Below are positions 4,092 to 62,009 of a DNA stretch of 64,000 nt, piece by piece (the first letter of the stretch is position 1; each line of letters starts with the position of its first letter). The notes beneath the pieces are model-generated. The model did not search any database and was not told the DNA's origin. It saw only the letters and a program-made list of their open reading frames with translations. Origin of the DNA: Pristiophorus japonicus (lineage: Eukaryota); NCBI RefSeq assembly GCF_044704955.1, contig NC_091999.1, positions 54,870,001 to 54,934,000 of the forward strand. The letters run 5' to 3'. Position numbers and translations under genes: made by a program.

Positions 4092-4174
4092 TACCAGGAG
4101 TGGGGTTCGAACCCACGCGGGTATAAACCCATTGGATCTTAAGCCCAACGCCTTAACCACTCGGCCATCCTGGT
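4092..4174 (-). tRNA. TRL-TAA: tRNA-Leu(TAA), intact
   Basis: Perfect acceptor stem (ACCAGGA...TCCTGGT-A), CT-TAA-GA anticodon loop and GGTTCGAACCC B box. Confidence 0.92.
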
Positions 4175-4929: not shown

Positions 4930-5010
4930 CGGAGTCGGCAGGATTCAAATCTGTGCGGGGATTCCGAATGGATTTTTAGTCTATGGCCTTAACCAATGGG
5001 CCACGACTAC
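4930..5010 (-). pseudogene. tRNA-Ser pseudogene (AAA anticodon)
   Basis: Same lesions as 568-648. Confidence 0.85.
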
Positions 5011-5217
5011 TGGCTCGCCGCCTTTTTAAATGTTACTCAGTTAAAACTCAACCATCCATCTCTGTGCAGCAGACGGCCACAGAATAGTGAAAAAGTCACC
5101 GTTTGCTAACAATCTGGAAGAGGCTGTATTTCTGCTGCTCTATATTGCCCTGGAACTTTTTAATATGAATCGATACCAAGAAACAGAAGCAAAATTCTGC
5201 CTTTTGTAAAATGCAGC

Positions 5218-5288
5218 CTCCCCGTTAGGGAATTGAACCGTGGTCTCCCGTGTGACAGGCGGGGATATTCACCACTTTCCCACGAGAA
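5218..5288 (-). pseudogene. tRNA-Asp(GTC) pseudogene
   Basis: Near-identical to 856-926. Confidence 0.85.
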
Positions 5289-6476: not shown

Positions 6477-6558
6477 TACCAGGAGTGGGGTTCAAACCCA
6501 CGCAGGTATAAACCCATTGGATCTTAAGCCCAACGCCTTAACCATCGGCCAACCTGGT
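6477..6558 (-). pseudogene. tRNA-Leu(TAA) probable pseudogene
   Basis: The B box reads GGTTTGAA and there is a 1-nt deletion in the D-loop relative to the 4092 copy. Confidence 0.8.
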
Positions 6559-7313
6559 GCTGTCAGCTATTGGATTCTGTCTATGTGAGAATCTGGGCTT
6601 CAACTCCACCTCCACAGACACACACAAACACATCGGGTTTCAGGGAGCATTTCCGAACATTTTTCGGAATATTGACACGGGGGCAACTCTCCTATTCTTT
6701 TTCGAGTAATGCTCTGGGACATCTCACAACCACCTGAGTGCGCAGACGGAGCTTCAATTTAACATTTCATCCGAAAGTCAACAGTTTCAACAATGCAAAA
6801 TTCCCCAAATGCTGCAGTTGAGTGTTAGCCAAGATTATATGCTCAAGTCTCAGGAGTGCGACTTGAACACAAAAACTCATGATTCAGTGAAGAATGCTGC
6901 CACTGAACCAAAGCTGAGACAAAAGTTCACAGCCATATTACTTTCCCAAGTCTTTTTTTTAAGTTCCAGGACATACCAAATTCATGGTGATGATTTCCAC
7001 AGACAGTTGCACATACACATAGACATTTTTTACAGATAGACAGACACAGAGACACACACACAAAAATTTACAAGCACCAACGGACATGCACAGATGCCTT
7101 AGACATCTCGAGGGATAGACAGGCTGAATCCCTGTCGCAACTTTGGCTGATTTTTGCGATTTTCTATCCGTATGTATCGTGAATATTGCAGATTAATGAA
7201 AGAAAGAAAATAGCGGCAGCATTGAAAGGTGTGGGATGTTGTTCCGTCTATCTCAGAATCAGTTTTGCAGGGATCTGGTTAAATTGTCAAACAGAATGAA
7301 CTATGCTGAGAAA

Positions 7314-7395
7314 CGGAGTCGGCAGGATTCAAATCTATGCGGGGAAACCCGAATGGATTTTTAGTCTATGGCCTTAACCAATGGGCCACGACTAC
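7314..7395 (-). pseudogene. tRNA-Ser pseudogene (AAA anticodon)
   Basis: Same lesions as 568-648. Confidence 0.85.
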
Positions 7396-7602
7396 TGGCT
7401 CGCTGCCTTTTTAAATGTTACTCAGTTAAAACTCAACCATCCATCTCTGTGCAGCAGACGGCCACAGAATAGTGAAAAAGTCACCGTTTGCTAAAAATCT
7501 GGAAGTGGCTGTATTTTTGCTGCTCTATATTGCTCTGGAACTTTTTAATATGAATCTATACCAAGAAACAGAAGCAAGATTCTGCCTTTTGTAAAATGCA
7601 GC

Positions 7603-7673
7603 CTCCCCGTTAGGGAATTGAACCGTGGTCTCCCGTGTGACAGGCGGGGATATTCACGACTTTCCCACGAGGA
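7603..7673 (-). pseudogene. tRNA-Asp(GTC) pseudogene
   Basis: Homologous to 856-926. Confidence 0.85.
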
Positions 7674-8117
7674 ATTGATGCGCATGGGTTTTGTCAAAGC
7701 AATATTCGAGCTCTGAATAGAACTGGACACCATGAGAATGCTATGGGACCTTTCACATCCACCCGAGTGTGCAGATGAAGCTTCAATTTAACATTTCATC
7801 GGAATGTGAACAGCTTCAACAATGCAAAATTCCCCAAGCACTGCATTTGAGTGTCAGCCAAGATGACGTGCTCAAGTCTCAGGAGTGCGACTGACACACA
7901 CTACCTCCTGATTCAGTCGAGAATGGAGCCACTGAAAAAAAGCCGATACCAAAGATCACAACCGTATTATTTTCCCGAAGCTTTTTAAAATTTCCAGGAC
8001 GCACCAAATTCATGGTGATGATTTCCATAGACAGTTGCACATACACAGAGACATGCATACAGACAGACATACACAGACACACACACACACAATAACCAAA
8101 AATATACACGCATCAAC

Positions 8118-8812
8118 ATAGAAACATAGAAACAAATAAATTAGTTGCAGGAGTAGGCCATTCGGCCCTTCGAGCCTGCACCATCATTCAATAAGATCAT
8201 GGCTGATCATTCAACCTCAGTACCCCTTTCCTGCTTTCTCTCCATACCCCTTGATCACTTTAGCCGTAAGGGCCATATCTAACTCCGTTTTGAATATATC
8301 TAACGATCTGGCCTCAACAACTTTCTGCGGTAGAGAATGCCAGAGTGAAGAAGTTTCTCCTCATTTCGGTCCTAAATACCTTACCACTTAATCTTACACT
8401 GTCACCCTTGGTTCTCGAATTCCACAGCAATGGGAACATTCTACCCGCCTCTAACCTGTCCAATCTCGTCAGAATTTTATATATTTCTATGGGAGCGCCT
8501 CTCATTCTTCTAAACTCCAGTGGATACCAGCCCAGTTGATCCAGTCTCTCCTCATATGTCAGTCCTGCCATCCCGGGAATCAAGCTGGCGAATCTTCGCT
8601 GTACTCCCTCAATAGCAAGGACGTCCTTCCTCAGATTGTGAGAACAAAACTAAACACAATATTCCAGGTGTGACCCCACCAAGGCTCTGTACAACTGCAG
8701 TCAGACCTCCCTGCTCCTGTACTCAAATCACCCAGCTATGAAGGCGAACATGCCATTTGCCTGCTTCACCTGCGTGCCAACTTTCACTGACTGATGTACC
8801 ATGACACCCAGA
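8118..8812 (-). mobile_element. 5'-truncated CR1 LINE (3' end of ORF2 plus UTR) inserted in the tRNA array
   Basis: ORF 8314-8583 (LEFRRMRG..IEIYKIL..FRTEMRRNFF) is the CR1 RT C-terminus. There is a (GTTTCTAT)n 3' tail at ~8118-8133. Confidence 0.9.
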
Positions 8813-8963
8813 TCAAGATATACACAGAGTGCCTTATACAAATAGATGGATCGACAGGCAGGTTCACTGTCGCTACTTTGGCTGCCTTTTGTTCCATCTA
8901 TCTCAGAATCAGTTTTGCATGAACCTGGTTAAATTATCAAACAGAATGAAATATGCTGAGAAA

Positions 8964-9045
8964 CGCAGTCGGCCGGAATCAAATCTGCACGGGGAAACCC
9001 CAATGGATTTTCAGTCCATCGTCTTAACCACTCGGCCACAACGAC
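8964..9045 (-). pseudogene. tRNA-Ser pseudogene (anticodon loop CT-GAA-AA)
   Basis: Ser-type anticodon stem and variable arm (GGGG-TTT-CCCC) are intact; the T-arm is broken. Confidence 0.8.
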
Positions 9046-9264
9046 TGGTCCGCTGCCTCTTTAAATGTTACTCAGATAAAACTCAGTCATCCATTTCTGT
9101 GCAGCAGACGGCCACAGAATCCTGAAACAGTCTCCGTTTGCTAAAAATCTGGAAGTAGCAATCTGATCTTGCTGTATTTTTAATGTTCTATATACTCTGG
9201 AACTTTTCAACATGAGTCGATACCAAGAAACAAAAGTAAAACTTTGTATATTTGAAACAACTGC

Positions 9265-9336
9265 CTCCTCGTCGGCGAATTGAACCCCAGTCTCCCGCAT
9301 GACACGCAGGGATACTCACCACTATACTAACGAGGA
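9265..9336 (-). tRNA. TRD-GTC: tRNA-Asp(GTC), best-preserved copy (T-stem mismatches; may be a pseudogene)
   Basis: TCCTCGTTAGTATAGTGGTGAGTATCCCTGCGTGTCATGCGGGAGACTGGGGTTCAATTCGCCGACGAGGAG. Confidence 0.65.
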
Positions 9337-10048
9337 ACTGACAGATATTGGCTCTGGAATCGAGATGTGAACAGAACTGGACACCATGAGAAGCCGACCG
9401 TCGTATTGAGAGACAGAGACAAACCGACAAACAGGGAGAGACAGACAACGAGATAGAGACAACGAGAGACAGAAATTATGAGTCTGAGGCAGACTGAGTG
9501 AGAAAAAGACTCAAATACAAACATATACAGAGATGTGTGTGTGTGATTTATAAAGAAAGAGAGGGAAAGAGTGAGAGAAATACAATGATAAAGACAGTGA
9601 CAAGGAGAGAGACAGATAGCGAGAGAGAGATAGAGACAAAAAATGAAAATGATTGAAATACTTCTCAGGTTAGAGACAGGGACGAACAGAGGCAGGCAAA
9701 GACATGGTCAGACAGAAATGATGGGAAAGAGAGAGCCAGTCAGACAAAGAGTCTGAGAGAATCCCATTGGGACATACGTGGACACCGTGAGAAAGAGACA
9801 GATTGAGAGACAGAGACAAATCGAGAAACAGGGACAGATAGATTGAGACAAAGACTCAAACATACAAACGCATACACAGCTCTCGAAAGAGAGAGAGAGG
9901 CAGAGACCGAGCGACACAGATACATTTCACAATTTCATTTCATTATCGGCTCAGAGTGTCACATAGGTACAGAAAATTGCAGATTCAACAGATGAAAATC
10001 CGGTATCACTGATCGGAATGGGAGGAAATCCGTGTTAAATTAAAGAGA

Positions 10049-10130
10049 TACCAGGAGTGGGGTACAAACCCACGCGGGAAATGTCCATTGAATTTTAAAG
10101 CCACCGCCTTAACCACGCGGCCATCCTGGT
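10049..10130 (-). pseudogene. tRNA-Leu pseudogene
   Basis: Acceptor stem is retained; T-loop and anticodon stem are mutated. Confidence 0.8.
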
Positions 10131-10824
10131 CCTGTCACAATCTGGATTCTGTCTCTGCGAGAATCTGGATTCAACCCCACTCCCACAGACACACACATAC
10201 ACATCGTTTTTCAGTGAGCATTTACGAACATTTTTAGTAATATTGACACGGGGGCAACTCTCCTATTCTTTTTCGAGTAATGCTCTGGGATGTTTCACAT
10301 CCATACGAGGGTGCAGACGGAGCTTCAATTTAACATTTCATCCGAACGTCAACAGCTTCAACAATGCAAAATTCCCCAAGTGCTGCACTAGAGTGTTAGC
10401 CAAGATTATATGCTTAAGTCTCAGGAGTGGGAATTGAACACACATACTCCTGATTCAGTCGAGACTGCTGCCACTGCAACAAAGCCGATACCAAAGTTCA
10501 CAACAGTATTATTTTTCCCAATTCTTTTTTATAAGTTCCAGGACATACCAAATTCATGGTGGTGATTTCCACAGACAGTTACACGCACCAACGGAGATGC
10601 ACCGATGCCTTAGACATATAGAAGGATAGGCAGTCTGAATCACTGTATAAACTTTGACAGCTTTTTGAGTTTTTCTATCCGTATGTATCTTTAATATTGC
10701 AGATTAATAAATATCAGAAAGAGATGTCAGTGTTGAAAGGTGTGGGATGTTATTCCACCTATCTCAGGATCAGTTTTGTAGAGACATGGTTAAATTGTGA
10801 AATGCAATGAAAAATGCTGGGTAT

Positions 10825-10906
10825 CGAAGTCTGCAGGATTCGAACCTGCATGGGGAAAACTCAATGGATTTCGAGTTCATCGCCTTAACCACTCGGCCAC
10901 GACTAA
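10825..10906 (-). pseudogene. tRNA-Ser(CGA)-like, degenerate
   Basis: A and B boxes are intact and the loop reads CT-CGA-AA, but the acceptor and anticodon stems have mismatches. Confidence 0.75.
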
Positions 10907-11125
10907 TGCATTTCTGCCTCCTTGAACGTTACGCAGAAACAACTCAGTCATCCATCTCTGTGCAGCAGACGGCCAAAGAATCATGAAAAAGTCTCCGTTT
11001 GCTCAAAATCAGGAAGAGGCAATCTCCTCTACCTGTATTTTTACAGTTCTATATTGCTCTGGAACTTTTTAATATGAATCTCTTCCAAGAAACAGAAGTA
11101 AAATTCAACATTTTGAAACAACTGC

Positions 11126-11196
11126 CTCCCCGTCGGGGAATTGATCCCCGGACTCCTCATGACAGGCGGGGATACTCACCACTTTACAAACGAGAA
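11126..11196 (-). pseudogene. tRNA-Asp(GTC) pseudogene
   Basis: Aligns to tRNA-Asp; the B box reads GGATCAATTCC. Confidence 0.8.
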
Positions 11197-12402
11197 ACTG
11201 ACGAGCATCAGTTCTGTCAGAGCAGGAATCGAGTTGTGAATAGAATTGGACACCATGAAAAGTCGACAGACACATTGAGAGACAGAGGAAAACGACAAAC
11301 AGGGAGAGACAGACAGCGAGATAGAGACAACGAGAGACAGAAAGTGTGAGACTGAGAAGGAGAGGCAGACTGAGTGAGAAAAAGACTCAAACACATATAT
11401 ATACAGAGGTCTGTGTGTGTGATCTATTAAGAGAGAGAGGGATAGAATGAGAGAAAGACAATGATAAATACAGTGACAAGGAGAGATACAGATAGAGAGA
11501 GAGAGATAGAGACAAAAGCAGAAAATGATGGAAACTCTTATCAGGTTAGAGACAGGGACTAACAGAGACAGACAAAGAGAGACAGACAGGCAGAGACATA
11601 GACAGACAGAGATGATGGGAAAGAGTGAGACAGTCAGAAAGAGAGACTGAGAGAATCCGATTGGAACAGAACTGGACACCGTGAGAAAGAGAGAGACACA
11701 TTGAGAAACAGAGACAAACAGGGAAACAGGGAGTGACAGAAAGTGAGATAGAGACAGAGAGAGACAGAAAGTTTGAGACTGAGACGGAGGGTCAGACTGA
11801 GTGAGACAAAGACTTGAAAACATACATACACAGAGATGTGTTTGCGTGCTCCAAAAAGAGAGGGAGGCAAATAGTGATGGAATGAAAAGAAAAAGCCAGG
11901 GACAAAGAGAGAGACAAAGAGGGAGACAGATAGAGAAAAAGACAGATAGAGAGAGAGACAAAGAGGCAAAAACAGAAAATGATGGAAATACTCATCAGGT
12001 TAGAGGCAGGGAGTAATAGAGACAGGCAAAGACATGGACAGACAGAGATGATGGAAAGAGAGAGACAGTCAGACAGATAGTCTGAGAGAATCCCTTTGGA
12101 ACAGAACTTGACACCGTGAGAAAGAGACAGATTGAGAGACAGAGACAAACAAAGTAAAAGGGACAGACAGAGTGAATCAGAGAGAGGCAGACTGAGAGAG
12201 ACAAAGATTCAAATACACAAACACATACACAGCTCTCTAAAGGGAGAGAGAGGCAGAGACTTAGCGACACAGATACATTGCACAATTTCATTTCATTATC
12301 TGCTCAGAGTGTCACCGAGTTACAGAAAAATGCAAATGCAACAGATGAAATTCGGGTATCACTGAGCAGGATGGGAAAACAATCTTTGTTTAATTAAGCA
12401 AT

Positions 12403-12485
12403 CACCAGGACTGGGATACGAACCCACGAGCGTAAAAACCCATTGGATCACCAGCCCAACGCCTTAACCACTCGGCCATCCTGGT
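12403..12485 (-). pseudogene. tRNA-Leu-derived pseudogene (anticodon GGT, G73, internal T5)
   Basis: Leu body with a CT-GGT-GA loop, TTTTT in the variable arm and T-loop TTCGTAT. Confidence 0.8.
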
Positions 12486-12984
12486 CCCGTCAGCAATTGG
12501 ATTCTGTCTCTGTGAGAATCTGGGCTTCATCTCCACCCCCACAGCCACACACATGCACATCGGGATTCAGGGAGCATTTCCGATCATTTTTAGCAATATT
12601 GACACGGGGGCAACTCTCCTATTCTTTTTGAAGTAATGCTCTGGGACCTCTCACATCCACCCGAGTGCGCAGACGGAGCTTCAATTTAACATTTCATCCG
12701 AATGTCAACAGCTTCAACAATGCAAAATTCCCCAAGTCCTGCAGTTGAGTGTTAGCAAAGATTATATGCTCAAGTCTCAGGAGTGCGACTTGAACACACA
12801 AACTCCTGATTCAGTCGAGAATGCTGCCACTGAACCAAAGCTGAGACAAAAGTTCACAGCCGTATTACTTTCCCCAAGTCTTTTTTTTTAAGTTCCAGGA
12901 CATACCAAGTTCACGGTGATGATTTCCACAGACAGTTGCACATACACAGAGACATATATACAGATAGACAGACACAGAGACACA

Positions 12985-15890
12985 GTCGATTCAATCTCTC
13001 CTCATATGTCAGTCCTGCCATCCCGGGAATCAGTCAGGTAAACCTTTGCTGCACTCCCTCAATAGCAAGAAAGACCTTCCTCAGATTACGAGACCAAAAC
13101 TGAACACAATATTCCAGGTGAGGTCTCACAAAGGTCCTGTACAACTGCAGTAAGACCTCTCTGCGCCGATACTCAAATCCCCTAGCTATGAAGGCCAACA
13201 TACCATTTGCCTTCTTCACTGCCTGCTGGAACTGCATGCCAGCTTTCAATGACTGATGTACCATGACACCCAGGTCTCGTTGCAGCTCCCGTTTTCCAAA
13301 TCTGCTGCCATACAGATAATATTCTGCCTTCGTGTTTTTGCCACTAAAGTGGATAACCTCATATTTATCCACATTATACTGCATCTGCCATGCATTTGCC
13401 CTCTCACCTAACCGGTCCAAGTCACCCTGCAGCCTCTTAGCGTCCTCCTCACAGCTCACACCGCCACCCTGTTAGTATCATCTGCAAACTTGAAGATATT
13501 ACACTCAATTCCTTCATCTAAATCATTAATGTATATTGTAAATAGCTGGGATCCCAGCACTGAGCGCTGTGGCACCCCACTAGTCACTGCCTGCTTTTCT
13601 GAAAAGGACCGTTTATCCCGACTCTCTGCATTCTGTCTGCCAACCAGTTCTCTATCCACGTCAGTACATTACCCCCAATACCATGTGCTTTAACTTTGCA
13701 CATCAATACGTGTGTGGGACCTTGTTGAAAGCCTTTTGAAAGTCCAAATACACCACATCCACTGGTTGCCCTTGTCATTATACTAGCTACATCCGCAAAT
13801 AATTCCAGAAGTTTTGTCGAGCTTGATTTCCCATTCATATATTCATGCAGCTTGGACCGATCCTGTCACTGCTTTCCAAATGCGCTGCTATTTCATCTTT
13901 AATAAATTGATTCGTACATTTTCCCCACTACTGATGTCAGGCTAACCGGTCTGTAATTATCCGCTTTCTATCTCCCTCCTTTTTTAAAATGTGGTGTTAC
14001 ATTATTTACCCTTCAGTTCATATGAACTGATCTAAAGTCGATAGACTGTTCGAAAATGATCATCCGCTATTTCTAGGGCCACTTCCTTAAGTACTTTCCA
14101 ATGCAGACTATCAGGCCCTGGGGATTTATCGGCCTTCAATCCCATTTATTTCCCGAACACAATTACCTGACTGATAAGGATTTCCTTCAGTTCCTCCTTC
14201 TCGCTAGATCCTTGGTGCCCTAGTATTTCTGGAAGGTTATGCGTTTCTTCCATCGTGAAGACAGAACCAAAGTGCTTGTTCAACTGGTCTACAATTGCCT
14301 TCTTCCCCATTATAAATTCACCTGAATCTGATTGCAAGGGACCTACGTTTGTCTTCTCTAATCTTTTTGTCTTCACATATCTATCGAACTTTATTATGTT
14401 CCCAGCAAGATTCCTCTCATAATCTATGTTCCCCCTCCTAATTAAACCCTTTGTCCTCCTCTGCCGAATTCTAAATTCCTCCCAGTCCTCAGGTTGAAGC
14501 TTTTTCTGGCCAATTTATATGCCTCTTCCCTGGATTTAACACTATCCTTAATTTCCTTTGTTAGCCACGGTTGAGCCACATTCCCCGTTTTATTTTTACT
14601 CCAGACAGGGAAATACAATTGTTGACGTTCATCCATTTGATCTTTAAATGTTTGCCATGGCCTATCCACCTTCAACCCTTTAAGTATCATTCGCCAGTCT
14701 ATTCTAGCAAATTCACGCCTCATACCATCGAAGTTATCTTTCCTTAAATTCAGGACCCTAGTCTCTGAATTAACTGTGTCACTCGCCACCTTAATGAAGA
14801 ATTCTACCTTATTATGGTCACTCTTTCCCAAGGGGCCTCGCACAACAAGATTGCTAATTGGTCCTTTCTCATTACACACCACCCAGTCTAGGATGGCCAG
14901 CCCTCTAGATGATCCCTCGATATACTGAGTGAGAAAACCATCCCTAATACGCTCGAGGAAATACTCCTCCACCATATTGCTACCTGTTTGGTTAGCCCAA
15001 TCTACATGTAAAGTAAAGTCGCCCTTGATAACAGCTGTATCTTTATGGCACGCATCCCTAATTTCTTGTTTGATGCTGTCCCCAACCTCACTACTACTGT
15101 CTGCTGATCTGTACACAACTCCACTTGCGTTTTCTTCCCTTTGGTATTCCGCAGCTCCACCCATTCATATTCCACATCATCCAAGCTAATGTCGTTCCTT
15201 ACTATTGCCTTAATTTCCTCACTATTGCCTTAATTTCCTCTTTAACCAGCAACGCTACCCTACCACCTTTTCATTTCTGTCTATGCTTCCTGAATGTTGA
15301 ATTCCCAGCCTTGGTCACCCTGGAGCCATGTCTCCGTGATGTCAATTATTTCATATTCAGTAATTGCTGCTTGTGCAGTTAATTCGTCCAGCTTATTACG
15401 AATACTCCTCGCAATGAGGCACAGAATCTCCAGGCTTGTTATTTTAACACACGTTGTCCCTTTAGAATTTTGCTGTAAAAGGCCCTATTTGATTTTTGCC
15501 GTGGGTTTCTCTGCCCTCCACCTTTTCTTTTATTCTTTCACTTCTGCGCCCATTCTACTTCCCTCTGTCTCCCGTCGCCCTGCCATATTACTTTAAACCC
15601 TCCCCAGAAACGCTAGCATGCACTCCACCTTGAACATTGGTTCTGGTCCTGCCCAGGTGCAGACCGTCCGGTTTCGTTCTGGTCCCACCTCCTGCAGAAC
15701 CGGTTCGAAAGTCCCAGAACTTGAATCCCTCCCATCTGCACCACACTTCAAGCCACGGATTCATCTGAGCTATCCTGCGATTCCTGCTCCGACTAGCAGG
15801 TGGCGCTGGTAGCAATTATGAGTTTGCGACCTTTGAAATCCTACTTTTTAATTTAACTCCTAGCTCCCTGAATTCAGCTTGTTGGTCCTC
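12985..15890 (-). mobile_element. Decayed CR1 LINE (ORF1 SGNH-esterase end, AP endonuclease, RT), 3' end missing
   Basis: 15588-15815 encodes MNPWLEVWCRWEGF..PDGLHL (CR1 ORF1). 14442-15164 is the endonuclease (GDF..WANQ, LGKSDHN). 13456-13659 has SGVPQ.SVLG..FADDT. Confidence 0.92.
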
Positions 15891-16075
15891 AGACACATTG
15901 AGTCAGAGACTCAAACACGTAAAGATATACAGAGCTCTCTAAAGACATAGAGTGAGAGGCACTTCACAATCCCATTTCTTGGTCAGTTGAGAATGTGACA
16001 GAGTTACAGTTTCAACAGAAGGCATTAGGGTATCAATGAGCAGGATGGGAGAAAATCGGTGTTAAATTCAAGAGT

Positions 16076-16158
16076 TACCAGGAGTGGGGTTCGAACCCAC
16101 GTAACTATAAACCCATTGGATCTTAAATGCAACGACTTATACACTCGGCCATTCTGGA
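16076..16158 (-). pseudogene. tRNA-Leu(TAA) pseudogene
   Basis: B box is intact; D, anticodon and variable stems are disrupted. Confidence 0.8.
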
Positions 16159-16931
16159 CTTGTGAACCTTCACATTCTGTCTCTGTGAGAATCTGGGCTT
16201 GAGCACCACCCTCACAGACACACGCATACACACAGGTTTTCAGTGAGCATTTCAGAATATTTATATAAAAGTGACATGGGGGCAACTCAGTACTCTTTAT
16301 CGAATAATGCTGTCGGAACATTCACATTCACCCGAGAGAGCAGATGGAGCTACAATTTAACATTTCATCCGAAAGTCACCATCTTCAACAATGCAAAATT
16401 CCCCAAGTACTGCACTTGAGTGTCAACCAAGATTATATGCTCAAGTCTCAGGAGTGGGACTTGAAGTCGAAAATGCTGTCGCTGAAGCAAAGCCGATATC
16501 AAATGTCACAACCGTATTATTTTCCCCAAATCTTTTTTAAAAGTTCCAGGACATACCAAATTCATGGTGATGATATCCGCAGACAGTTGCGCATACACAG
16601 AGACATATACACAGATAGACAGACACAGAGACACACACACAGATAGACAGACACAGAGACACACACGCATACATAACCAAAAATATAGATGCACCAATGG
16701 ACATACACAGAGTGCCTTAGACATATAGAGGGATAGACAGGCTGAATCACTGTCGCGAATTGAGCTGATTTTTGCGTTTTTCTATCCGCATGTATCGTAA
16801 ATATTGCAGATTAATGAAAATGAGAATAACATGTCAGTGTTGAAAGGTGTGGGACGTTATTCCATCCAACTCAGGATCCGTTTTGCAGGGACCTGGTTAA
16901 AGTCTGAAATTGAATGAAAAATGCTGAAATC

Positions 16932-17013
16932 CGTAGTCGGCAGGATTCGAACCTGCGCGGGTAAACTCCCATGGATATCTAGTCCATTGCCTTAACCACT
17001 CGGCCACGACTAC
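16932..17013 (-). tRNA. TRS-AGA: tRNA-Ser(AGA), nearly intact
   Basis: GTAGTCGTGGCCGAGTGGTTAAGGCAATGGACTAGATATCCATGGGAGTTTACCCGCGCAGGTTCGAATCCTGCCGACTACG. Acceptor, anticodon and T stems are perfect, it has G73, and a T5 terminator lies ~11 nt downstream. T37 and a weakened variable arm are atypical. Confidence 0.75.
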
Positions 17014-17231
17014 TGCGTCTGTGTGTTTTTAAATGTTACTAAGATATAACTCAATCATCCATCTCTCTGTATCAGAACACCACAGAGTCCTGAAAAAGTC
17101 TCCGTTTCCTAAAAATATGGAAGAGCCAATATCGTCTTGCTGTATTTTTACTCTTCTATGTTGCTCTGGAACTTTTAATATGAATCTATACCGAATAACA
17201 GAAGTACAATTCTACATTTCGAAAATGCTTC

Positions 17232-17276
17232 CTCCCGCATGACAGGTGGGGATACTCACGACTATACTAAAGAGGT
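17232..17276 (-). pseudogene. tRNA-Asp remnant with internal deletion of the T-arm
   Basis: The 5' half is retained; the deletion lies between two CTCCC microhomologies. Confidence 0.7.
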
Positions 17277-17639
17277 ACTGACGGGTGTAGATTTTGAGAC
17301 AGCAGGAATCGAGCTGTGAAAAGAACTAGACACCATGAGAAAGAGACAGACACATTGAGAGACAGATACAAAAACAGGAACAGGGAGAGACAGACAGCGA
17401 GCTAGAGAAATAGAGAGAGAGCAAGTGTGAGACTGAGAGGGATAGGCAGACTGAGTGAAACAAAGACTCAAACACACACATACACAGATATGTGTGTGTG
17501 TGTGCTCCATAAAGAGAGGGAGGCAAAGAGTATACCGTTGATGGTTAACATAGAAAATAAATGATTATGAAATGAAAAGTGTCCTTATATTTTAACAAGT
17601 TCTTTGCTGTCAGACTAACATTAACCTGGCATTTACAGA

Positions 17640-18090
17640 GAGCAGAACTTTGCACAGAATTCTCAGTGTAATATACAGACCAGAACTGTGCATAATATTC
17701 TCAGTGCGATATGGGGACCAGAACCATGCACATTATTCTAAGAGTGATATGGGGACCTGAACTATGCGTACTATTCTAAGTATGATATGGAGACCAGAAC
17801 TTTACACCGTATTCTAAGTATGAGATGGAAACCAGAACTTGAAACAATATTCTAAATGTGATATGGAGAACAGAACTGTGTACAGTATTCTAACTGTGAT
17901 ATGGAGAACGGAACTGTGCATACTATTTTAAGTATGAAATGGAGACCAGAACTTTAGACACTCTTCTAAGTATGAGATGGAAATCAGATTTGTGAACAAT
18001 ATTCTAAATGTGATAAGGAGACTAGAACGATGCGCAGTATTCTAAGTATGATATGGAAACCACAACTGTACACAGTACTCTAAGTGTTGT
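17640..18090. repeat. ~38-bp minisatellite (ATTCTAAGTATGATATGGAGACCAGAACTGTGCACAGT-like), ~12 copies, downstream of Cmu1
   Basis: Directly visible tandem units. Confidence 0.9.
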
Positions 18091-18165
18091 CTAACCAAAT
18101 TTCTACACAAGTTGAACATAATTCCTCACCTTATCATAGTTTGCCCTGTAACCCATATCACTAAC

Positions 18166-18465
18166 CTCGCATTGTGATGGCCCAGACCGATACACCACGT
18201 CGAACCTCACAGTAGATTGTGCTGTTCCCCACATCTGTCTCGTTGATGGTTAACTGGCTGCTCTGGGTGTAGGTTCCCTTCTTGGTGAGCATTGATGGGT
18301 AGGTCTTCAATCCAGTGGTGATTGGCACTTTATCTTTCTTCCAGGAAATGCTGGTTATATCGGGGGAGTAGTCCATCGCCAAACAACCATATGTGATGGA
18401 GCCATCGGTGCTTGGTTGTTCACAAGAGGAGAGCAGGGCGTAGAGGGTGGGGGGTGGCGGTGTTA
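18166..18465 (-). CDS. IGHM: IgM heavy-chain constant exon Cmu1 (shark type), intact, 300 nt
   Basis: [90 protein letters not shown]. It has the C1-set C/W/YxC pattern and closely resembles horn shark Cmu1. Acceptor TTCTTTCCCAG, donor G|GTTAG, phase 1/1. Confidence 0.95.
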
Positions 18466-19219
18466 CTGGGAAAGAATGGCCCATTGAACAAGTTAGACTC
18501 TGTAATCCATGCTTATAAAAGAAATAAGCAACACGAAATTTGACTGCAGAATAATCTAATTCCACCATTTCCCCATCAAAGACTACACGGGCATTTGAGT
18601 TTCTGTCAGTTCCATCATAAGCACCTGTCGATGCCCTGGTGAGGAACACACCTTTTTATCCCCTAGCTCTATCATATTACACAACAAGAACCTTTACACA
18701 ACTCGTCAATAAAGACTCCTTCATTGGATCATACAATAGAAGAACAGAGACGTGTTCCTGCTATTTCGGATTGCATTTATTTCTCAATCAGCACCATTTC
18801 TGGTCCTTTATTTAATTGCTGTTTGGGGAATTTTGCTCTGTGCACATTGCCTGCGGCATATCCCTACAAAACAACAGTGACTGTACTTCAAAGTAACAGC
18901 GGAATTCCTGCTTCGGATGTTAACAAAAAAACCCTCTAAATTTGCCTACCACATAATTCAACATAGTCTACTTTCTAAGATTCAAGTTGTAGGTGAATCG
19001 CGATTGAGTCTAATTTCTCCCTTATTTTCTCAGCATTTGCGGGAGAGCGATGTCGCTCAGTGCACTGTGATCTGGGCTCTATCCCATCCTATTGAATGCA
19101 TGTCTCTTGAGTTTCCTCCTCCCTCCCATTCAATTAATAATCCGAATAAAATACCATTCCAAAATCTGGTTAATTGGAAGTTTCTCCTTAAATGGCCCAT
19201 TTCAGTTCCCATTGTTGTT

Positions 19220-20140
19220 CCTGTTATATAACAATGACCTGGGCTTGGTTATAGGGAATACAATATCGAATTTCGAAGATGATGCAAAACCTGGCAATGT
19301 AGCCAATAGTGAGCATGAAAGCAGCAGACTCCATGAGGAGACAGATGGACCAGTGAAATAGGCTGGGACATGGCAATTGCAATTTAATGCGAATCATTGA
19401 GAAGCGATGCACATTGGGTGGAAGATGGAGAGGCAGTATAATCTAAATTGTATTGTTTTGAGGGGATGCATGAACAAAGAGATCTAGATGTACATATTCA
19501 CAAATATTTGAAGGGGGCAGGGCAAACTGGTAAGACTGTTATGAAAGCGTATGGGATACTTTACTTTGTAAATGGGGCATTGACTACAAACACAAGGCGG
19601 TTTTGATAAACGTACAGATCACGTGTTAGGCCTCAGCTGGAGTATTGTGCACAATTCTGGCACAACAATGTAGGAAGGATGTCAAGCCCTTGGGGAGTGT
19701 ATGTAGAGGGGAGGCTTTTACCAGGATGATGCCAGGGATGTGGTCTTCAGTTATATGGAGAGATTGCAGAAGCTGGGATGTTCTCCTTGGAGCAGAGGTT
19801 AAGAGGAGACTTAAGAGAGATATTAAACATTATGACATGTTTTGACAGAGCAAGTAATGAGAAACTGCTTCCGCTGGAAAGTAGGTGGATAACCAAAGGT
19901 CACAGATTTAAAATAATTGGCAAAAGATCAAAAGGGGAAATTGGGGTAATTTTTTCACACAGAGGGTTGGTAATTTCAGGAATGCTCCAGACATTTCCTC
20001 CTGTAAGTCAGGATGACTCAATTGCACGGTTACAAGCAAAACCCTGGGGGGTTGGTATAAATTGGACAGCTCTTTCAGAGCCGGCACAGGCACGATGCCT
20101 GAATGGCCTTTCCAGTGCTGTGAGATGCTATCATTCTACA
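19220..20140 (+). mobile_element. Old CR1 3' fragment in the J-Cmu1 intron
   Basis: ISNFEDDAK and FSLEQRLRGDL.E..IM motifs. Confidence 0.85.
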
Positions 20141-20849
20141 CGAGTCAGTGGGAATAGTTCTTCTAGATTTAATTAAAGGAAACGCTTCATATTTTGGACA
20201 CCTCTACCAGATCTATTTTTATTGTTCGTTATAATGAAAGAGGATATTTAAAATAAAGGGATCTTATAAATCTGACACAAATTAGTCAATCGCATGCTGT
20301 TATAAAGGCTTAACGTTCATTGTGAATGATGACTTATTGCAGGTTGACTCTATCTCTTTAAATGTTTCACAGAATTACAGCTCAGTGATTGTGTGCCTTG
20401 TGTTGTGACCCAGGCCAATAGCTGCATCTCGTCATAGTTTGTCCCTGCCTTTAACCTTCTCAGGAAGAATTGAACAACATAATGTTTCTAAACATGAGGT
20501 CCCCATGACGGTTATTTGAAGCGGGAATCTCGATATTCTCCATTTAAATTGTGAAAATATCTTACAGCCTCCCAACAGATTAGAACAGGCGCTGCTTTCT
20601 GGACCGTTATTCACTTCCTAAAACGGTTTGTTCTGAAAGTGAGCTGAGGATCAGGCCAATCGTGTTCAATAGTAATCTGATGCTTAAAATGTTCAAAAAT
20701 TAATAATTCATATAAATTTGGGCTTTTTTTCAGAAAGAATATAAACATCAATGAATGTGCGTTGTTTAATCTGGGCAATGGAGCGATTTATTGTATATAT
20801 CTGGCACGAGCAGTTTATCTGCTATCTGTTAGTCGCATATAACGGTGCC

Positions 20850-22245
20850 TTGAACACTGCCTGACCAAGCACTCTCAGGTCCGATACAGCACGGATAAGA
20901 GAGCAAAGCTCCCGCTGTGCTGCCGTGTGTGTCAGGACAGGTATAGCAAGGGTTGCATACAGAGTAATACGTTATCTGTATTATCCCGTCAAACATTCCC
21001 AGCTCAAGTACTGCAGAGATGTGCTACGAAATGCCTTCCCTTAAAATGTGTTATCAAATTGACCGATTAGATTAAGCACAATTATCACAAGTACAAAGAA
21101 AAGCTTCCTATACACTGATCCATTAAAGCGCACCAGCTCACCTCGAGCTCTGATTAAATAGATCAAGCTATATTGAAGGACCCAATTAAGCTCCACGTCC
21201 TTGTAAATAAAAGGTTAAATACTGATTAAAGCTATCTCTGCAATGTCCCATCAAGCACTGCCATTTAAGGTAAAGCACGGGTTAGTTGCAGAGTAAAGCT
21301 CCCTCTTCACTGTCACATCAAACACTCCCAGGGCATGTACGGCACGAGTTAGATAAAAAGTAAATTTCCCTCCACACTGCCAATTAAACACACTCAGAGC
21401 AGGTATAGTAAGGCTTGGATAAAGAATAAAGCATTCTCTACACTGTTCCATCAAACACTGCCAAGACAGGTACAGAGTAAAGCTCCCTCTACAGTGTCCC
21501 ATTAAACATTCCCAGGGCATGTTCAGCATGGGTTAGATACAGAATAAATCTCCCTCTACGGTGTTTCATCAAAAAATCCCAGTGCAGGTACAAAATTGCC
21601 AAAATAAATTGGAGTACCCAGCAGATCAGACGAGATGCTGCTATCCTGAAAGTGTTTGTTCTGAAAGTGAGCTTCGGATCAGACCAATCTCATTCAATAA
21701 TTATCTGATGCTCAAATTCTATAAACATTACGAATTCGATATCTTATTAGTTAGAAGCAGATGAGGTTCCTTCAATATTTTTGGGAAATCACTCAAATCA
21801 GATACAGGATCGATCCGATAGAGTAAATCTCCCTCTTCACCGATCTATCTGGGGCTTAAGGTCATGTAAAGCAAAGGTTGAATGAACATTATACTTCACT
21901 ACCCTGTATGACGGGTCAAATATAGCAAGGTTTGGATTCCGAGTAAAATTATTTCTGCACTGTCCCATTAAACACTCCAAAGGCATGTAGAGCATGGGCT
22001 AGATACAGAGTAAAGCTCCCTCTACATTGTCCCATCAAACACGTCCACAGCAGGTACAGCATGGGTCAGATACAGAGTAACACTCCCTCTACACTGTCCC
22101 ATCAAACACTCTCAGGGCACGTACAGCACGGGTTAGATACAGAGTACAGAGTAAAGCTCCTTCTTCACTGTCCCATCAAACACTTCCAGGGCAGGTACAA
22201 CCGGGTTAGAAACTGATTAAAGCTCCTTCTACTCTCTCCCCATGG
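20850..22245. repeat. 67-bp tandem repeat (GGGTTAGATACAGAGTAAAGCTCCCTCTACACTGTCCCATCAAACACTCCCAGGGCAGGTACAGCAC); other arrays ~33000-33290, 45170-45430, 52340-52630
   Basis: The period is 67 bp (e.g. 22063 to 22130). Confidence 0.9.
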
Positions 22246-25200
22246 TGTTTTGGAACTGCTCCTTCTGACTATCCTAATCTGGGTTACCGATCTCATTTCT
22301 GCGGCGACTCCACAACCTTAAAGTCAATCTTTCACGTTTCTCACATATGCCAGTTTCTTAAATAACTGAGTTAAATTACACTCCCTGCAATACAGGATCA
22401 CAATCCAGAAGTTTTACAATCCGTCAGGAGGACTCCTGATTCTCACGCAGTGAGCAGGCGCACAGAAACGGAACAGAGAGACCAGCTCACTCTGTAATTT
22501 CAATGACGCTGCTTGATTTCTTATTTACTTCTTGTCAATTTCCAACCACCTCAACTCTGCAGATTCTTTGAAATTCAACTGATATTAATTTGAGAGATTC
22601 TTCAACATCCAGCCATTTTTCCATCTCTGTCAACTATGTTGTAAACCGTGTAAAAAAGAACTTCCCTGAAAGCAAGTATCTGGAAATAATTCACATTCCA
22701 CGGGAATTTGCTGCCCGTCACACGGGAATCAGTGACAGAATAAGAATATCACAATCCAGGGGACATCTACAATGAAACCTGATCACCCACTGATTTTATA
22801 TCTTTTCATCAGTAAATATAACCTGTAAAATCATCGAGGCAAAACAGGAAGTTAATTCACTAAAATCTGCAGCGACACCTTATCGAACTCAGCACAGCCG
22901 GGTTATACATGCATTGTTTTCTAAATTATCTTATGAATTAATTAAACATTATCTGCAACCCTTGAGATTTTGCAATAAGTGTAATACTGACCAGTATGCA
23001 ACACAATTGTAATGGACCGTTTATGTTTAATGAAATAGCACTGATGTTACTGTCTAAGTTAATGTTCATGTTAGCTGATTATTGAAAATAATCTGAGTGC
23101 CTATCTGGTTCTTCCTGCTCAGAAGCACACGTACCTGGAACTTTTGAAATTAAATTAACGTGCTTGAATTTCAGCCTTACTAATACAATTAATTAATAAT
23201 AATTTTAAAACCTTTTTCTGCCTGGTAACTTGTGATATATTAAGGTTAACTTAACTTATTATAACAATTCATGAATATTAAAATATTAAGCAGCATATTA
23301 ATATATCAATACTCAGAAAAATACCTTTTTTTTTACTTAAATCGAAACAAATTTGAATAATTGACAATAATCGCTGTCCCGCTCTCGACCGACATCTTTT
23401 TAAACTCTGCATGTTTCTGATATTGGATAAACTGCGTCTATTCGCAGAGAACATTTCACATGATCGATTTAAGGGTGGACTATTTTAAATAGTTCTCTGT
23501 CCAGCCGGGGTCACAACTCCAATGGTTGTAAACCGCTTGTTTACTAATGCTGGAATCTCGAGCTGAAAGATTCTCCTCAATCTTAAACCCCAAAAATGTC
23601 ATTATTGATTAAAACCCACCCGTGTAGTTTACAGTTAGTAGCAGATCCTCCGCTGTTTAGTAACACAGACAATCTTTTATAGTTCACTCCCGTTATTCAC
23701 ACAATGCCCCAATTTAATGATTAAATATATTCTGCTACTTCTTTAAAATAGTTTCCCGAATGGTCAGTGAAAACTGGAGGATAACAAATCATTCAGACCG
23801 TATGCGACATTGAAACTGAATGAGCAAATGGAGGAGAAACTTTGTTCATCAATTTAATATTCATAAGAATTAAACATAACTCTCAGATATTATCTGTACT
23901 TTGTCTACTATTCTATTCCGCATACAGCAGCGTATTGGGAGAATAGATTTTGTTTTAAATTCAAAATAAGATGAACCTTTTGTAAGTAAATTAATCTGCT
24001 TGAATGCAGTATTTGCCTGTCTCCAGCCATACGCAGTCGGAACCTGCCTTGCATTTAAATATAATGACATGAACAATTCTTTGACTGCCAGCGACGCCTG
24101 TCTCTCAGCTTTTGGTCTTGCAAAGTGTTCAAGATTAATTTAGTAATAACTCTATCAAACAACACACAATATTGAATCAATAACAAATTTCGGCTGCACA
24201 GTGAGAATGTCATACCCCGGCAGATATATTAAATTGACAAAATGCAATTTACAACACGGCTTTAAGTTATAATTAATTGCCCTCAATCATTCATCTGTGT
24301 AAACAGGAGGTAGCAAGTAATTGAACTCCTGACACAACTGAATACAGCGGTGGAATCAATATGTTGTCAGTGAAATAATTGCAGGCATAATTAATAACTG
24401 TGTCCAGCCTCTAAAAAATTCTGCTTCCCTTAATGGATCCCAGTGCAGAGCAGAATTTTGGAAAGCGAATAATATTGAGGAAATTAACATTAGACTTATA
24501 GCATATTTTAACAACACTGGGAGATATTATCGCATTATAATCGGTTGCTTAATATTCATTTAATTCAACTACAACCTGAACACATTAATTATGTAGATGG
24601 CAATTAGTTACATTTCACACAATAAAATATCAGCATCGTAAAGATAGATTAATAGTTGAATATATATTTATCACTTGTATAATTGTTATGTTAAAATACC
24701 TTTCAATGATTTCTGATTTCTAAACCCGTCCTGTTCTCTGCCTATAATCTGTTTTCAAACAGTTTCAAACACATATCGTGTTTGCATTCGAGCAGAAACC
24801 TGATGCTACCCGCTGACACTGATATTAAACATTGTAGAAACGCCAAACAGTTTCACAAATTCTAGGTATTCTGAGTAACACAGGCATACCTCTCCTCAGC
24901 AGATCAACACTAAATCACATCACTGAGGGGCGAAATCCCTCGACAGAACCTTTCATGGAGCAGACGCTTCATTTTATAAACCCTTTCAGCAGAATCAAAT
25001 GTATCATTGCAAAAAATCTCATTACACAATCACCAAACCCGCCTAACACTGAAATAACTAAAGATTGAATTCAACAGAAATATAAAATAATGAAAGCAGA
25101 ATTGCGATCAAACGGATCATGTTAAATACATTAATGTTGATATTATAGCATATTTAATAAAACGTGTTGATATTGCTACATTATATTAATGTTAATAATA

Positions 25201-25754
25201 TTAATTTAACTGTGTCCTAGCGTGAAATATGTTAATTTTCCAGTTCTTAAGTACAGTAGCAGCTCACGTATTGAATCTGAGCGTTCGGAAACATTCGGTC
25301 AGTAGATGACAATGCAATTTCATTAAAAAAAACTTAAAATTCCTTAAGCTTATTTACTGATCGCTAAGCTTTCTGTTTTGTGCCTACAATGTTCTTTTAA
25401 ACATATTTATACACAATGTTTGCATTCGATCAGAAAAACTGCAGCAATTAGAGATCACCAAAATTAAACATTGCAGAAACATCAAACAGTGTAAAAACCA
25501 TAACGTATTTAGAGTAACCCAGGCACATGTCTCGTCAGCAAATAAATACCAAATCACATCAACAACATTTTCAGTGGAGAAACAGTTGAATTCTATAATC
25601 ACTTTGCAGCAGAATCACATTGAACATTGCAAAAAATCTAAAAACAAAATCCACCGAACCCAAATTTCAGTGAACAAAATAATTATTAAAATAAACAGAA
25701 ATATAAAATAAAGACACAAATACAAGAGTCACTGAATGAGTGAATGTTCCTTAC

Positions 25755-25804
25755 TTGCAGTCACCGTCACCATGGTCCCTTGTCCCCAGTAGTCCATTTC
25801 GTTA
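25755..25804 (-). CDS. IGHJ: JH segment (possibly germline-joined D2-JH): NEMDYWGQGTMVTVTA
   Basis: WGxG motif. Splice donor A|GTAAGG is in phase with Cmu1. Confidence 0.95.
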
Positions 25805-25832
25805 CACAGTGAGACACGTCATGTCAAATACT
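25805..25832 (-). promoter_or_regulatory. 12-spacer RSS 5' of JH
   Basis: Read on +: CACAGTG (25805-25811), 12 nt, TCAAATACT (25824-25832). No nonamer-like sequence at 22/23 nt. Confidence 0.85.
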
Positions 25833-26157
25833 CCGGTGGACTGTTAACTGTAAAATACAGAGATTAAATTCCACCCAGCTCTAAAAACCCGATTCCGACT
25901 CCTGTAAGAGTGACTCAGCGAGATATTTCATTTTGTACCGTTCATTATATTTACAAAAATGATTGGAATACTTCTGAAGCATCTGTGCAGATTCAGCATG
26001 GCAATCAATAGTAATAAAGAAGAAAACATTTTTATGCATTTAAATATATATATAGATAGATAAATATTTTACTTCTATTTATTTTTATTTAAGCCTCAGT
26101 TCCTTCGACGCTCCTGGCGTTTTAATGATCGCAGGTTTGACCAAACTCCCTGTCTGG

Positions 26158-26240
26158 GGTTTTTGTATAGAGAGCTCGCTCTGTATACCACCGTGGCCCA
26201 CTGCTGTAGTCCCACAGTGACAGGAACCCGCGCATATACT
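26158..26240 (-). other. DH segment GGACTACAGCAGTGGGC (26196-26212) with 5' 12-RSS and 3' 22-RSS (shark D1 type)
   Basis: 5' RSS read on +: CACAGTG-12-GCATATACT (26213-26240). 3' RSS read on -: CACGGTG-22-ACAAAAACC (26195-26158). All three D reading frames are open. Confidence 0.93.
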
Positions 26241-26639
26241 GCACTCACTCTCTGCTCAGTACTGACTCTCAACATTCACGTCAAATAGACATTCACTTCA
26301 CATGCACATTCGCTTCTGATCAAGTTTAGAATTTAGCCAACAGTTTGCACAACACACTAGAGAGTAAACACAGTTCTACCCAACTCCCTGCATGTACCAG
26401 GCACAGTGAATCGAGTATCATTTCCAGCTCTGCAATTGCTGACACTTTAACATTAAACAGGAGCACAATCAAACCTCCCCTCCGTCGATGGGTTAGTGTG
26501 TTAGATTTTCCCATTTAATTCTCAGTGTGTTAGTTTTGTAAGAAGCGGTGTATGGTATTGTTCTGTACACTGCGGGTAACATTGCATTTGACACAATTAC
26601 TGACCGTTATGATGGAAGTTGTTGAATTCCGCCTCGATC

Positions 26640-26678
26640 TGTTCTTGTACGGGTCCAGCCCTGGTTCATCTCGCTGTG
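26640..26678 (-). promoter_or_regulatory. VH 23-spacer RSS
   Basis: CACAGCG-23 nt-ACAAGAACA immediately after YYCARD. Confidence 0.9.
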
Positions 26679-26984
26679 GGTCCCTTGCACAGTAATAGAT
26701 GGCGGTGTCTTCGCTCTTCAGTTTCTTCATGTCCAACGTGAAGATATTGTTTGAAGTGTCTTTGGACGCAGTAAATCGGCTCTCAATCCCTGGGACGTAA
26801 TACTTGCTCGATGGACTGTCGTAGTAAACCAGCCACTCTAGCCCCTGTCCGGGAACCTGGCGGACCCAGTACATCGAGGTGCCACCAAGATTGAAGCCGC
26901 TGGTTTTACAGGTCAGTCTCAGGGAGCCTCTGGGAATCCTGGTCTCTGCCTCGGACTGAGTCAACACCACATCCGAGTGGACAC
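26679..26984 (-). CDS. IGHV: IgM VH exon, intact
   Basis: [65 protein letters not shown], a classical shark mu-type VH. Acceptor TTTTACAG at 26985. Confidence 0.97.
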
Positions 26985-27110
26985 CTGTAAAAATAATCAA
27001 AAACTCCGAGGATCAATCCTGGTGAAATCATTCCTGACTCTGTAACATTCCAGAGAGAGACTAACACTGAGACAGTAACAGTGAGAGATTGGAGGATAAA
27101 AACTACTCAC

Positions 27111-27156
27111 GGGAAAAGAAAGCCAGCAACAGACTGAGCGCAATCGCCGACCTCAT
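27111..27156 (-). CDS. IGHV: VH leader exon (MRSAIALSLLLAFFS-R)
   Basis: 46-nt hydrophobic exon with a GTGAGT donor and a 126-bp intron; joins V in frame. Confidence 0.93.
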
Positions 27157-27244
27157 CCTCCTGGCAATGTGTGGTGAATGGTTCTGGCAAGAACTCACTG
27201 GGCAAACCCACTCCCGGACTGTTGTATTGCGGTCCCAGTGACAG

Positions 27245-27332
27245 CAGTTAAATACCCGGGAGCTGGGGGCGAGGTTACAGACGCCGCCCATTGATTCCCT
27301 GATAGGGGCGGTTTCTGGAACCACGTCACACC
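27245..27332 (-). promoter_or_regulatory. VH promoter: TATA-like TATTTAA (27254-27248), GC box (27305-27311), CRE/TCR-decamer-like TGTGACGTGG (27330-27321); no octamer
   Basis: Motifs are seen ~90-175 bp upstream of the ATG. Shark IgH promoters are known to lack the octamer and carry a TCR-like decamer. Confidence 0.65.
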
Positions 27333-28865
27333 TTCCACATCACCAACAGAATGGACTCACATCTGGACTGTAAATTAAATATTTTTATTTCCTCACTGTT
27401 TCACAGGAGATGTGGATCTCTGAGATTGAATTACATTATCAGGTTCTAAAGACACTGCCAGTTTGTGTTTCTCTATCTCCCGCTATCTATCCATGCATCT
27501 GTACCAATAACTTGTCCCCTATAATCTGAACTGTTATCACTCTATTTAACCGAGTGCGGGAGATGAGTAATGTGATTCTGTTTACGGTGTAAGTGGCTAA
27601 AGCTACACTTTTGGTCTGGAGATGAAATGATACTCTTCACATTATACAATTGTCTCTCATTGCATTTCACGAACTGCCCCTGAGTCTGTGACCCTAAGTC
27701 CGCCGTTTGTAAAATAAGCTGTAAAATAAGTCCGCTTGACTGATGATTAAGGAGTGAGTTGACGGAGACACATAAGAATGTGGGGCCCGCCCGCTTCAAA
27801 CCTGCGTTTCATGAGAGAAGCTTGTGAATCAGAACCGATAATGTGATCAGCAAACCTCGACATCCAAATCCTTGCTGCTAACTTTAATAGCGACCGAATG
27901 TGTAACAGACACGGGGAACATGAACACGGTGTATGAGGAGATAGCGGTATGTTACAGAATATCACAGGAATAAATGCTTAATCTGCAGCAGAAACAGATC
28001 ACAATCTGGACATTTCACCACCCAATGGTAGCCGGGCTATGAGAGGGGTTGTTCAGGGATCCAAATCAGCTCAAATTACACCGCAAACTGCGCGGCTACT
28101 AATCAGGAATAATGGAGAGATTAGTTTAGACCAGGCACAAAATTCGGTGAGAATATTAAAGAAGTGCAGCTGGCACTTCTCTGTGAGAATATTCAAGGCA
28201 ATACAACTTGTTTTAGTTACTTTGCGAATCCCAGTCATCACATTACAGTGTGGGGCGGTACCATTAAACCTCTCTCCAGCACTTTATGCTGTACTGAATA
28301 AAGGGACTGAATAATCTGGAATGTTCTTTATTTGGAAATGGTTTTCATTAGATACTGTGTGGATCAATTCATTATTTTCCGATCCTATTTTATAATATGG
28401 TGAGCATGGAATTTACGGAAAATCATTCTTGAGATGTTATACCATGTAAAATGTTTCATATTTTAAAAGTTCGACTGAATAATTTAATGTTCAAATAGTT
28501 AAATATCATCTTCCTCCCATTCTTGTTCACGCTAATCTGACCCACACAATATTTAGCAGTAGCCCAACCGACTGCCGTCAGCGAGCCTCGAACACCAGTG
28601 TCATTTATAGGAAGCATGTGGGGTTTTGTGCAGTCCATCAAAGGTCTCTTTTCTCACTACTGACCGCATGCCTGGAAGCCAACTTCAATATCTTTACATT
28701 GTCAAAAGACCTATTTATATACACATTTACGCAGTAACAGTGCTGGAGATAAGTTTAATTTTTTCGTTGTGTAAATGTGTGTAACTATTCCCATATCTCA
28801 GGAAAGGAAATATATCCAATGTCTCAGACACTATGTCAATAGCAGCAGTCAGCTGGAGTATCAGT

Positions 28866-29015
28866 NNNNNNNNNNNNNNNNNNNNNNNNNNNNNNNNNNN
28901 NNNNNNNNNNNNNNNNNNNNNNNNNNNNNNNNNNNNNNNNNNNNNNNNNNNNNNNNNNNNNNNNNNNNNNNNNNNNNNNNNNNNNNNNNNNNNNNNNNNN
29001 NNNNNNNNNNNNNNN
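28866..29015. other. Assembly gap (N)
   Basis: Run of n. Confidence 1.
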
Positions 29016-29139
29016 AGGGACACCACAATGACCTGTGCTGGGTCCACTATTGTTCACAACTTATATTAACAATTTAGATTTTGGAGTTAAAAACACAACT
29101 TCTAAATTTTCGAATGCACGAAGGGCGGGCGGGTCGGGG

Positions 29140-31220: not shown

Positions 31221-31229
31221 AAGATGATC

Positions 31230-62004: not shown

Positions 62005-62009
62005 GTTTT

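Follow-up and report, generated by a model that had tools for sequence, protein, structure and literature searches.

The window, a stretch of 64,000 nucleotides taken at its full length (C23:54870001-54934000 of a 5.9-Gb genome; positions given without a contig are window coordinates), contains an IgM-type heavy-chain cluster on the minus strand that stops after its first constant-region exon. The leader exon (27111..27156) has an open frame and a GT donor, and the same sequence is found in the two closest paralogues, A (C23:28.54 Mb) and B (C23:53.76 Mb). The VH exon (26679..26984) is also open and was recognized as a Pfam V-set domain (E value of 4e-15); its V differs from that of A and B by only 3 residues, and a single change, Gly18 to Arg, is private to it when polarised on three outgroup paralogues. 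The sequence at 26640..26678 represents the V 3′ RSS with a spacer of 23 bp, and its nonamer is that of the C34 and C24 paralogues. D1 (26212-26196), together with a 5′ 12-RSS and a 3′ 22-RSS, occupies 26158..26240, and its 5′ nonamer shows two changes from the state found in the C34, C24, and C90 clusters, one private and one common to A and B. A germline-joined D2-J segment (25804-25755) with the D2 12-RSS upstream follows at 25755..25832. Finally, an intact Cmu1 exon (18165..18465; Pfam C1-set, E value of 1.7e-10) carries the light-chain Cys and ends in a GTTAG donor. All of these features lie on the minus strand, and the leader, 5′ flank, and RSSs are mostly intact. A first-pass annotation, made from the letters of the stretch, had described L, V, D, J-type, and Cmu1 parts with open frames and canonical splice sites, and the GT/AG boundaries and Pfam matches bore out this description. 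The donor was correctly read as G|GTTAG with an immediate read-through stop (..AITMRG*), which lies one codon beyond the donor.

The L-V-D-(D)-J parts span about 2 kb 5′ of Cmu1 with RSSs in the order 23/12-22/12, which is the elasmobranch IgM layout. The designation as IgM was derived from A and B, because these closest relatives (98% identical) are complete and encode four C domains (Cmu1-4), an IgM-type tailpiece with a penultimate-Cys secretory tail, and TM exons; no named database match stands behind the label, and a PDB sequence search returned only generic heavy-chain CH1 matches, which do not settle the isotype. The cluster resembles the elasmobranch IgM miniclusters (VH-D1-D2-JH-Cmu1-4-sec-TM) described in passages of PMC5192425 and PMC2435157 in layout, spacing, and RSS pattern, and these passages also report the many copies, germline joining, and pseudogenes that are known for such miniclusters. 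It differs from them in having no Cmu2-4, tailpiece, or TM of its own, the parts by which a functional IgM cluster is recognized. Alleles private to the truncated cluster were found at 26931 and 26746 (V) and at 18455.

The segment previously annotated as J is present; however, it represents a germline D2-J join with a 12-bp RSS. Its 5′ flank matches, by eye, the D2 5′ flank of an unjoined V-D1-D2-J cluster on C90, and the D2 5′ 12-RSS and flank run straight into the J coding sequence, as in a partly germline-joined cluster. The resulting organization, for which V-D-DJ is presumably the appropriate term, is common to the truncated cluster, A, and the C34 and C24 paralogues. Both sharks and skates have partial germline joins, with VD-J and VD-DJ forms described in passages of PMC5192425. 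All of the inspected copies of the C23 subfamily displayed the D2-J join, and the V 23-RSS is compatible with the DJ 12-RSS, so that D1 could be bypassed. The copy at 46.49 Mb looks joined further, since a separate V end or D was not found there, and the cluster at C3:330.678 Mb has a germline D1-D2 join (V-DD-J) and otherwise retains the full set of Cmu1-4 and TM exons.

The seam between two duplicated blocks

Downstream of Cmu1, the remnant of the Cmu1-Cmu2 intron (17553..18164, minus strand) carries a 38-bp minisatellite (17638-18087) and then ends abruptly. A sudden switch at about 17531, roughly 630 bp past Cmu1, had been noted before; alignment to the paralogues refined this distance to 612 bp, with IgM homology extending to 17553 and array homology beginning at 17535, and revealed a 17-bp filler (17536..17552, no strand assigned) between the two sides. 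The window matched A and B at 98.0% over 11.3 kb, and this match stopped at 17553, corresponding to a position 33 bp upstream of the Cmu2 acceptor of A. On the right side, 17553..64000 (minus strand) is an inverted segmental duplicate (about 98%) of a block at C23:53.63-53.76 Mb that includes the complete gene B. The match to B runs on, inverted, to at least position 146249 at 95-98.6%, so that the block measures at least 128 kb; B, 1.1 Mb distant, is its closest intact copy. Relative to A and B, about 2.45 kb was absent at 46655 and about 100 bp at about 64790.

The left side (1..17535, minus strand) is a block of tRNA gene arrays whose final unit is incomplete. It constitutes a duplicate of block D, a tRNA-array block 21 Mb distant at C23:34.01-34.07 Mb, to which it is 98.2-98.6% identical from position -33569 to 17535, i.e., over at least 51 kb. 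Block D and four other inspected copies run on with ordinary array sequence past the point at which the array of the truncated cluster stops. The array module adjoining the break has 35 further full-length copies with identities of 90-99% (best 40 candidates scored), 28 of which are located on C23. The tRNA array recognized in the first-pass annotation was confirmed by ARAGORN, which placed nine tRNA genes at 854-17013, each on the minus strand. The array includes Leu-TAA, Asp-GTC, Ser, and Thr genes, and tRNA genes go on to about 11 kb left of the window. Leu-TAA and Asp/Glu units, each measuring about 2 to 2.4 kb, make up most of the array; some of the ARAGORN calls (an 83-nt Thr-GGT and a Phe-AAA) resemble decayed Leu- or Ser-type genes. 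Each side of the seam is a long, near-identical copy of a different locus, and the gene is interrupted where the two meet.

The 3′ half of the cluster was not recovered. The statement that no Ig exon is recognizable in the remaining 17.5 kb held, and the absence could be extended: a tblastn search with paralogue exons as queries, the leftward search that had been proposed, found no Cmu2, Cmu3, Cmu4, or TM exon in the 162 kb left of the break and yielded only cross-matches to Cmu1 itself. The 2.2 kb that follow the break in A gave matches above 92% only to A and B (best 40 of 8648 candidates). Among the matches listed, the nearest same-strand downstream Cmu2, Cmu4, and TM lie 5.66 Mb off at C23:49.22 Mb, in a cluster that has its own Cmu1. 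Because neither a remainder with about 98% identity nor a nearby same-strand exon was found, a displaced 3′ half or splicing to a distant exon is unlikely. Two orphan fragments with Cmu4 and TM (C23:51.24 and 20.18 Mb) were considered as the missing half and ruled out by their DNA identity of 88%; their break also differs, falling in the Cmu3-Cmu4 intron, and the fragment at 51.24 Mb additionally contains a stop and lies on the opposite strand. Likewise rejected were Cmu2 matches without a listed Cmu1 (28 of the 123 taken), which are at most 89% identical to the Cmu2 of A. These 28 matches are found on C23 and unplaced contigs; the one that was opened (17.46 Mb) has a decayed Cmu1 remnant, and some others might be Cmu1-less clusters.

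The first 14 of the 17 filler bases (17536-17549) are identical to 18241-18254 within Cmu1, about 700 bp away. A match of this kind within 1 kb on either side would arise by chance with a probability of about 6e-5 (one hit in 20000 random trials). Because these bases are identical to the cluster's own Cmu1, the filler suggests that the seam is a genuine repair junction, likely formed with a templated insertion. Short templated insertions are a recognized mark of template-switch or alternative end-joining repair (PMC8421209 and PMC2895639), and the seam resembles MMBIR and polymerase-theta end-joining junctions in its short insertion copied from near the breakpoint and in the lack of long homology between the joined sides. 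It differs in that the template here lies about 700 bp away, and the pathway is inferred from one junction.

We therefore favor, with a probability of about 0.84, the explanation that the window holds the 5′ half of an IgM cluster left at the seam of two duplicated blocks of about 98% identity, a young pseudogene that arose by germline rearrangement. Of the options raised in the first-pass annotation, this corresponds to the recently truncated orphan cluster, which is supported by the duplicate-block seam and the missing 3′ half. The junction would have been formed by template-switching or alternative end-joining repair, and this repair would have accompanied the duplication by which IgM clusters and tRNA arrays came to be dispersed over C23.

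Divergence and competing explanations

Changes since the separation from A and B were polarised against three outgroup paralogues. Over 7500 noncoding sites, 50 derived changes were assigned to the truncated cluster and 50 to A/B, with 5 ambiguous sites; the noncoding divergence on the branch of the truncated cluster is thus 0.67%. Over 716 coding sites, the corresponding numbers were 3 and 10 (Fisher p = 0.08 against the noncoding split), and the 3 changes on the branch of the truncated cluster compare to about 4.8 expected from the noncoding rate. V and Cmu1 contain one private amino acid change only. The probability that all frames and splice sites would stay intact under neutral drift along the whole branch was estimated at about 0.38, a rough figure for which indels were split evenly between the branches. 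The low coding count, the main point against the pseudogene reading, is consistent with selection that lasted until a recent break; continuing constraint would also be compatible with it. The open frames of the truncated cluster likely reflect its youth, not a function.

A small chance exists that the cluster still rearranges in B cells and either secretes a VH-CH1 chain that joins a light chain in a natural germline-encoded Fab or represents a constant-less VDJ donor, the latter traceable by its private alleles. For the latter role, the VDJ or V would be donated to the constant exons of another cluster through AID-linked switching or to TCR-delta through trans-rearrangement, making the locus a V reservoir, which we consider quite improbable. 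The intact leader, V, RSSs, and DJ would permit it, and passages of PMC4279169 describe expression of shark V regions with C regions that belong to another cluster, located over 120 kb away. Trans-rearrangements of IgM/IgW V to TCR-delta D are common in sharks according to passages of PMC12227049. However, nothing specific to the truncated copy indicates donation, its V would add little since only 3 residues separate it from A and B, and the D1 5′ nonamer is degraded. Moreover, passages of PMC2435157 state that a B cell of the nurse shark has between one and three VDJ rearrangements, of which no more than one is functional, and that Southern blots in this species did not show rearrangement of pseudogenes. 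Bystander rearrangement at the truncated cluster is possible and would not be expected to matter. Any such event would be unselected, because the TM exon and the secretory tail are absent and no B-cell receptor could be encoded.

An assembly error that joined the end of an IgM contig to a tRNA-array contig is very unlikely. The region is rich in duplications of 97-99%, and public contigs did not bridge the junction. When 17420-17636 was compared to these contigs, matches of 90-99% were obtained over 17554-17636 only, in 2 of 4 runs, with none at or above 99%; 17420-17508 was skipped as a repeat, and the sample is diverged. The closest public contig on Cmu1 differs at a site that the truncated cluster shares with A and B, and the sample therefore comes from a diverged individual or species. 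On the other hand, the junction sequence occurs once in the assembly, the seam contains no N gap, and the two sides do not overlap. The filler matches the cluster's own Cmu1, and its 14-mer was absent in 7 of 7 paralogues tested. The 50 private noncoding changes exclude a collapsed duplicate of A or B, and an unplaced 3′ half of about 98% identity was not found among the best 40 of 8648 candidates.

Less probable still, judged from these features of the DNA, would be a gene dedicated to secreted VH-CH1 (Fd) chains, each associating with a light chain as a Fab-like molecule. VH and CH1 are intact, the light-chain Cys is retained, a stop lies just past the donor, and coding divergence on the branch is low. 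We rejected the stop and the Cys as adaptations, since both are ancestral and family-wide in complete paralogues. While the Cys is indeed kept, as first noted, it was present in 6 of 6 paralogues aligned there, and the GTTAG donor, equally real, was found in 6 of 7 paralogues examined; neither is a special feature. The Cmu1 donor is the same as in A and B, and the derived features of a terminal exon (a lost donor or a new poly(A) site) were not found. Between the stop and the break, the intron of the truncated cluster contains neither AATAAA nor ATTAAA; AATAAA is present in the intron of A. The first ATTAAA (17179) and the first AATAAA (15534) are both located within array DNA. A simple scan identified 9 polypyrimidine-AG acceptor candidates downstream of the intact donor, the first at about 17402, and splicing to this candidate is predicted to append 46 non-Ig residues. 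For a transcript of the pseudogene, the prediction is polyadenylation at a cryptic site or splicing into array DNA. Antibody specificities are selected by antigen through the membrane form. Lacking a TM exon, a product of the cluster could not be a receptor, and its specificity could not be selected. Furthermore, the other Cmu1-only cluster found (C25) is decayed.

Heavy chains with fewer than four C domains are described in passages of PMC5192425, namely, nurse shark IgM1gj with three C domains and a zebrafish VDJ-Cmu1-TM form. The latter, a mu transcript with one C domain, would favor an Fd gene, though it includes TM exons. Both forms are expressed serum or membrane chains according to these passages; in contrast, the truncated cluster has neither a secretory tail nor TM, and its origin is a duplication breakpoint. 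We found no report of a Cmu1-only shark cluster, of a natural shark Fab-like product, or of IgM clusters interspersed with tRNA arrays in the literature searched, which lay mostly outside the subscription journals. No positive evidence emerged for the earlier suggestion of a Fab-like product or of splicing to a distant exon, and from the sequence, Fab-like and VDJ-donor roles of the truncated cluster appear unlikely.

Finally, although the array directly adjoins the intron, the proposal that a tRNA array was inserted there, with Cmu2-4 and TM lying beyond and still spliced, is largely refuted in this assembly, since the left side continues as a collinear copy (at least 51 kb) of the unrelated block D, no Cmu2-4 or TM was found in the 162 kb to the left, the nearest same-strand matches listed are 5.66 Mb away with their own Cmu1, and no displaced copy of the post-break DNA (Cmu2 and the next intron) at about 98% was found among the best 40 of 8648 candidates.

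Related half-clusters and significance

The family was surveyed with Cmu1 and Cmu2 searches. From the best 150 of 574 Cmu1 candidates, 97 heavy-chain-type matches (62-100% identity) were used, with one duplicate fragment of a split exon and 52 matches at or below 40% excluded. For Cmu2, 123 of 150 matches were used; 24 at or below 41% and 3 second pieces of split exons were left out. Of the 97 listed Cmu1 matches, 95 have a same-strand Cmu2 at a distance of 0.5-2.2 kb. The two without a Cmu2 among the matches listed were the truncated cluster and a decayed copy on C25. The latter, at C25:3.285-3.293 Mb, is a second Cmu1-only cluster. Its VDJ is germline-joined and frameshifted, a stop interrupts Cmu1, and Cmu2-4 and TM are absent over the next 35 kb. 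Its homology to a cluster on C3 breaks in the intron minisatellite and picks up again after Cmu4. The orphan fragments at C23:51.24 and 20.18 Mb are 3′-only (Cmu4+TM) and have one break in common, in the Cmu3-Cmu4 intron. Half-clusters are a recurring by-product in this genome.

At least 70 IgM Cmu1 exons are distributed along C23 from about 5 to 67 Mb, and about a hundred IgM copies are present genome-wide. At least 28 further copies of the tRNA-array module (90-99%) are interspersed with the C23 Cmu1 exons between 15 and 66 Mb. This arrangement suggests that IgM clusters and tRNA arrays were coamplified by segmental duplication on C23. Only 4 of 9300 gene-region sites distinguish A from B, and over 72.7 kb the two are 99.1% identical despite a separation of 25 Mb; the pair may stem from a very recent duplication event, or the assembly may contain one haplotype twice. 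Their shared branch carries 8 derived amino acid changes in V, J, and Cmu1.

Orphan and truncated Ig pseudogenes that arise from segmental duplication are known, for example, the mammalian IGH orphons. The truncated cluster is like these in being a partial Ig copy at the edge of a duplicated block; it differs in lying inside the main IgM-bearing chromosome and in retaining V, D, and DJ segments with their signals. Taken as a pseudogene, the cluster is nothing unusual, yet it constitutes a clean, young example of the birth and loss of IgM clusters in duplications that carry tRNA arrays. A natural secreted Fab, if true, would be new for antibody biology, and the present analysis gives it no support. 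The cluster also offers a natural test: with nothing after Cmu1 in its own C region, it could contribute its private V alleles to a full-length mu or TCR-delta transcript only by intercluster switching or trans-rearrangement.
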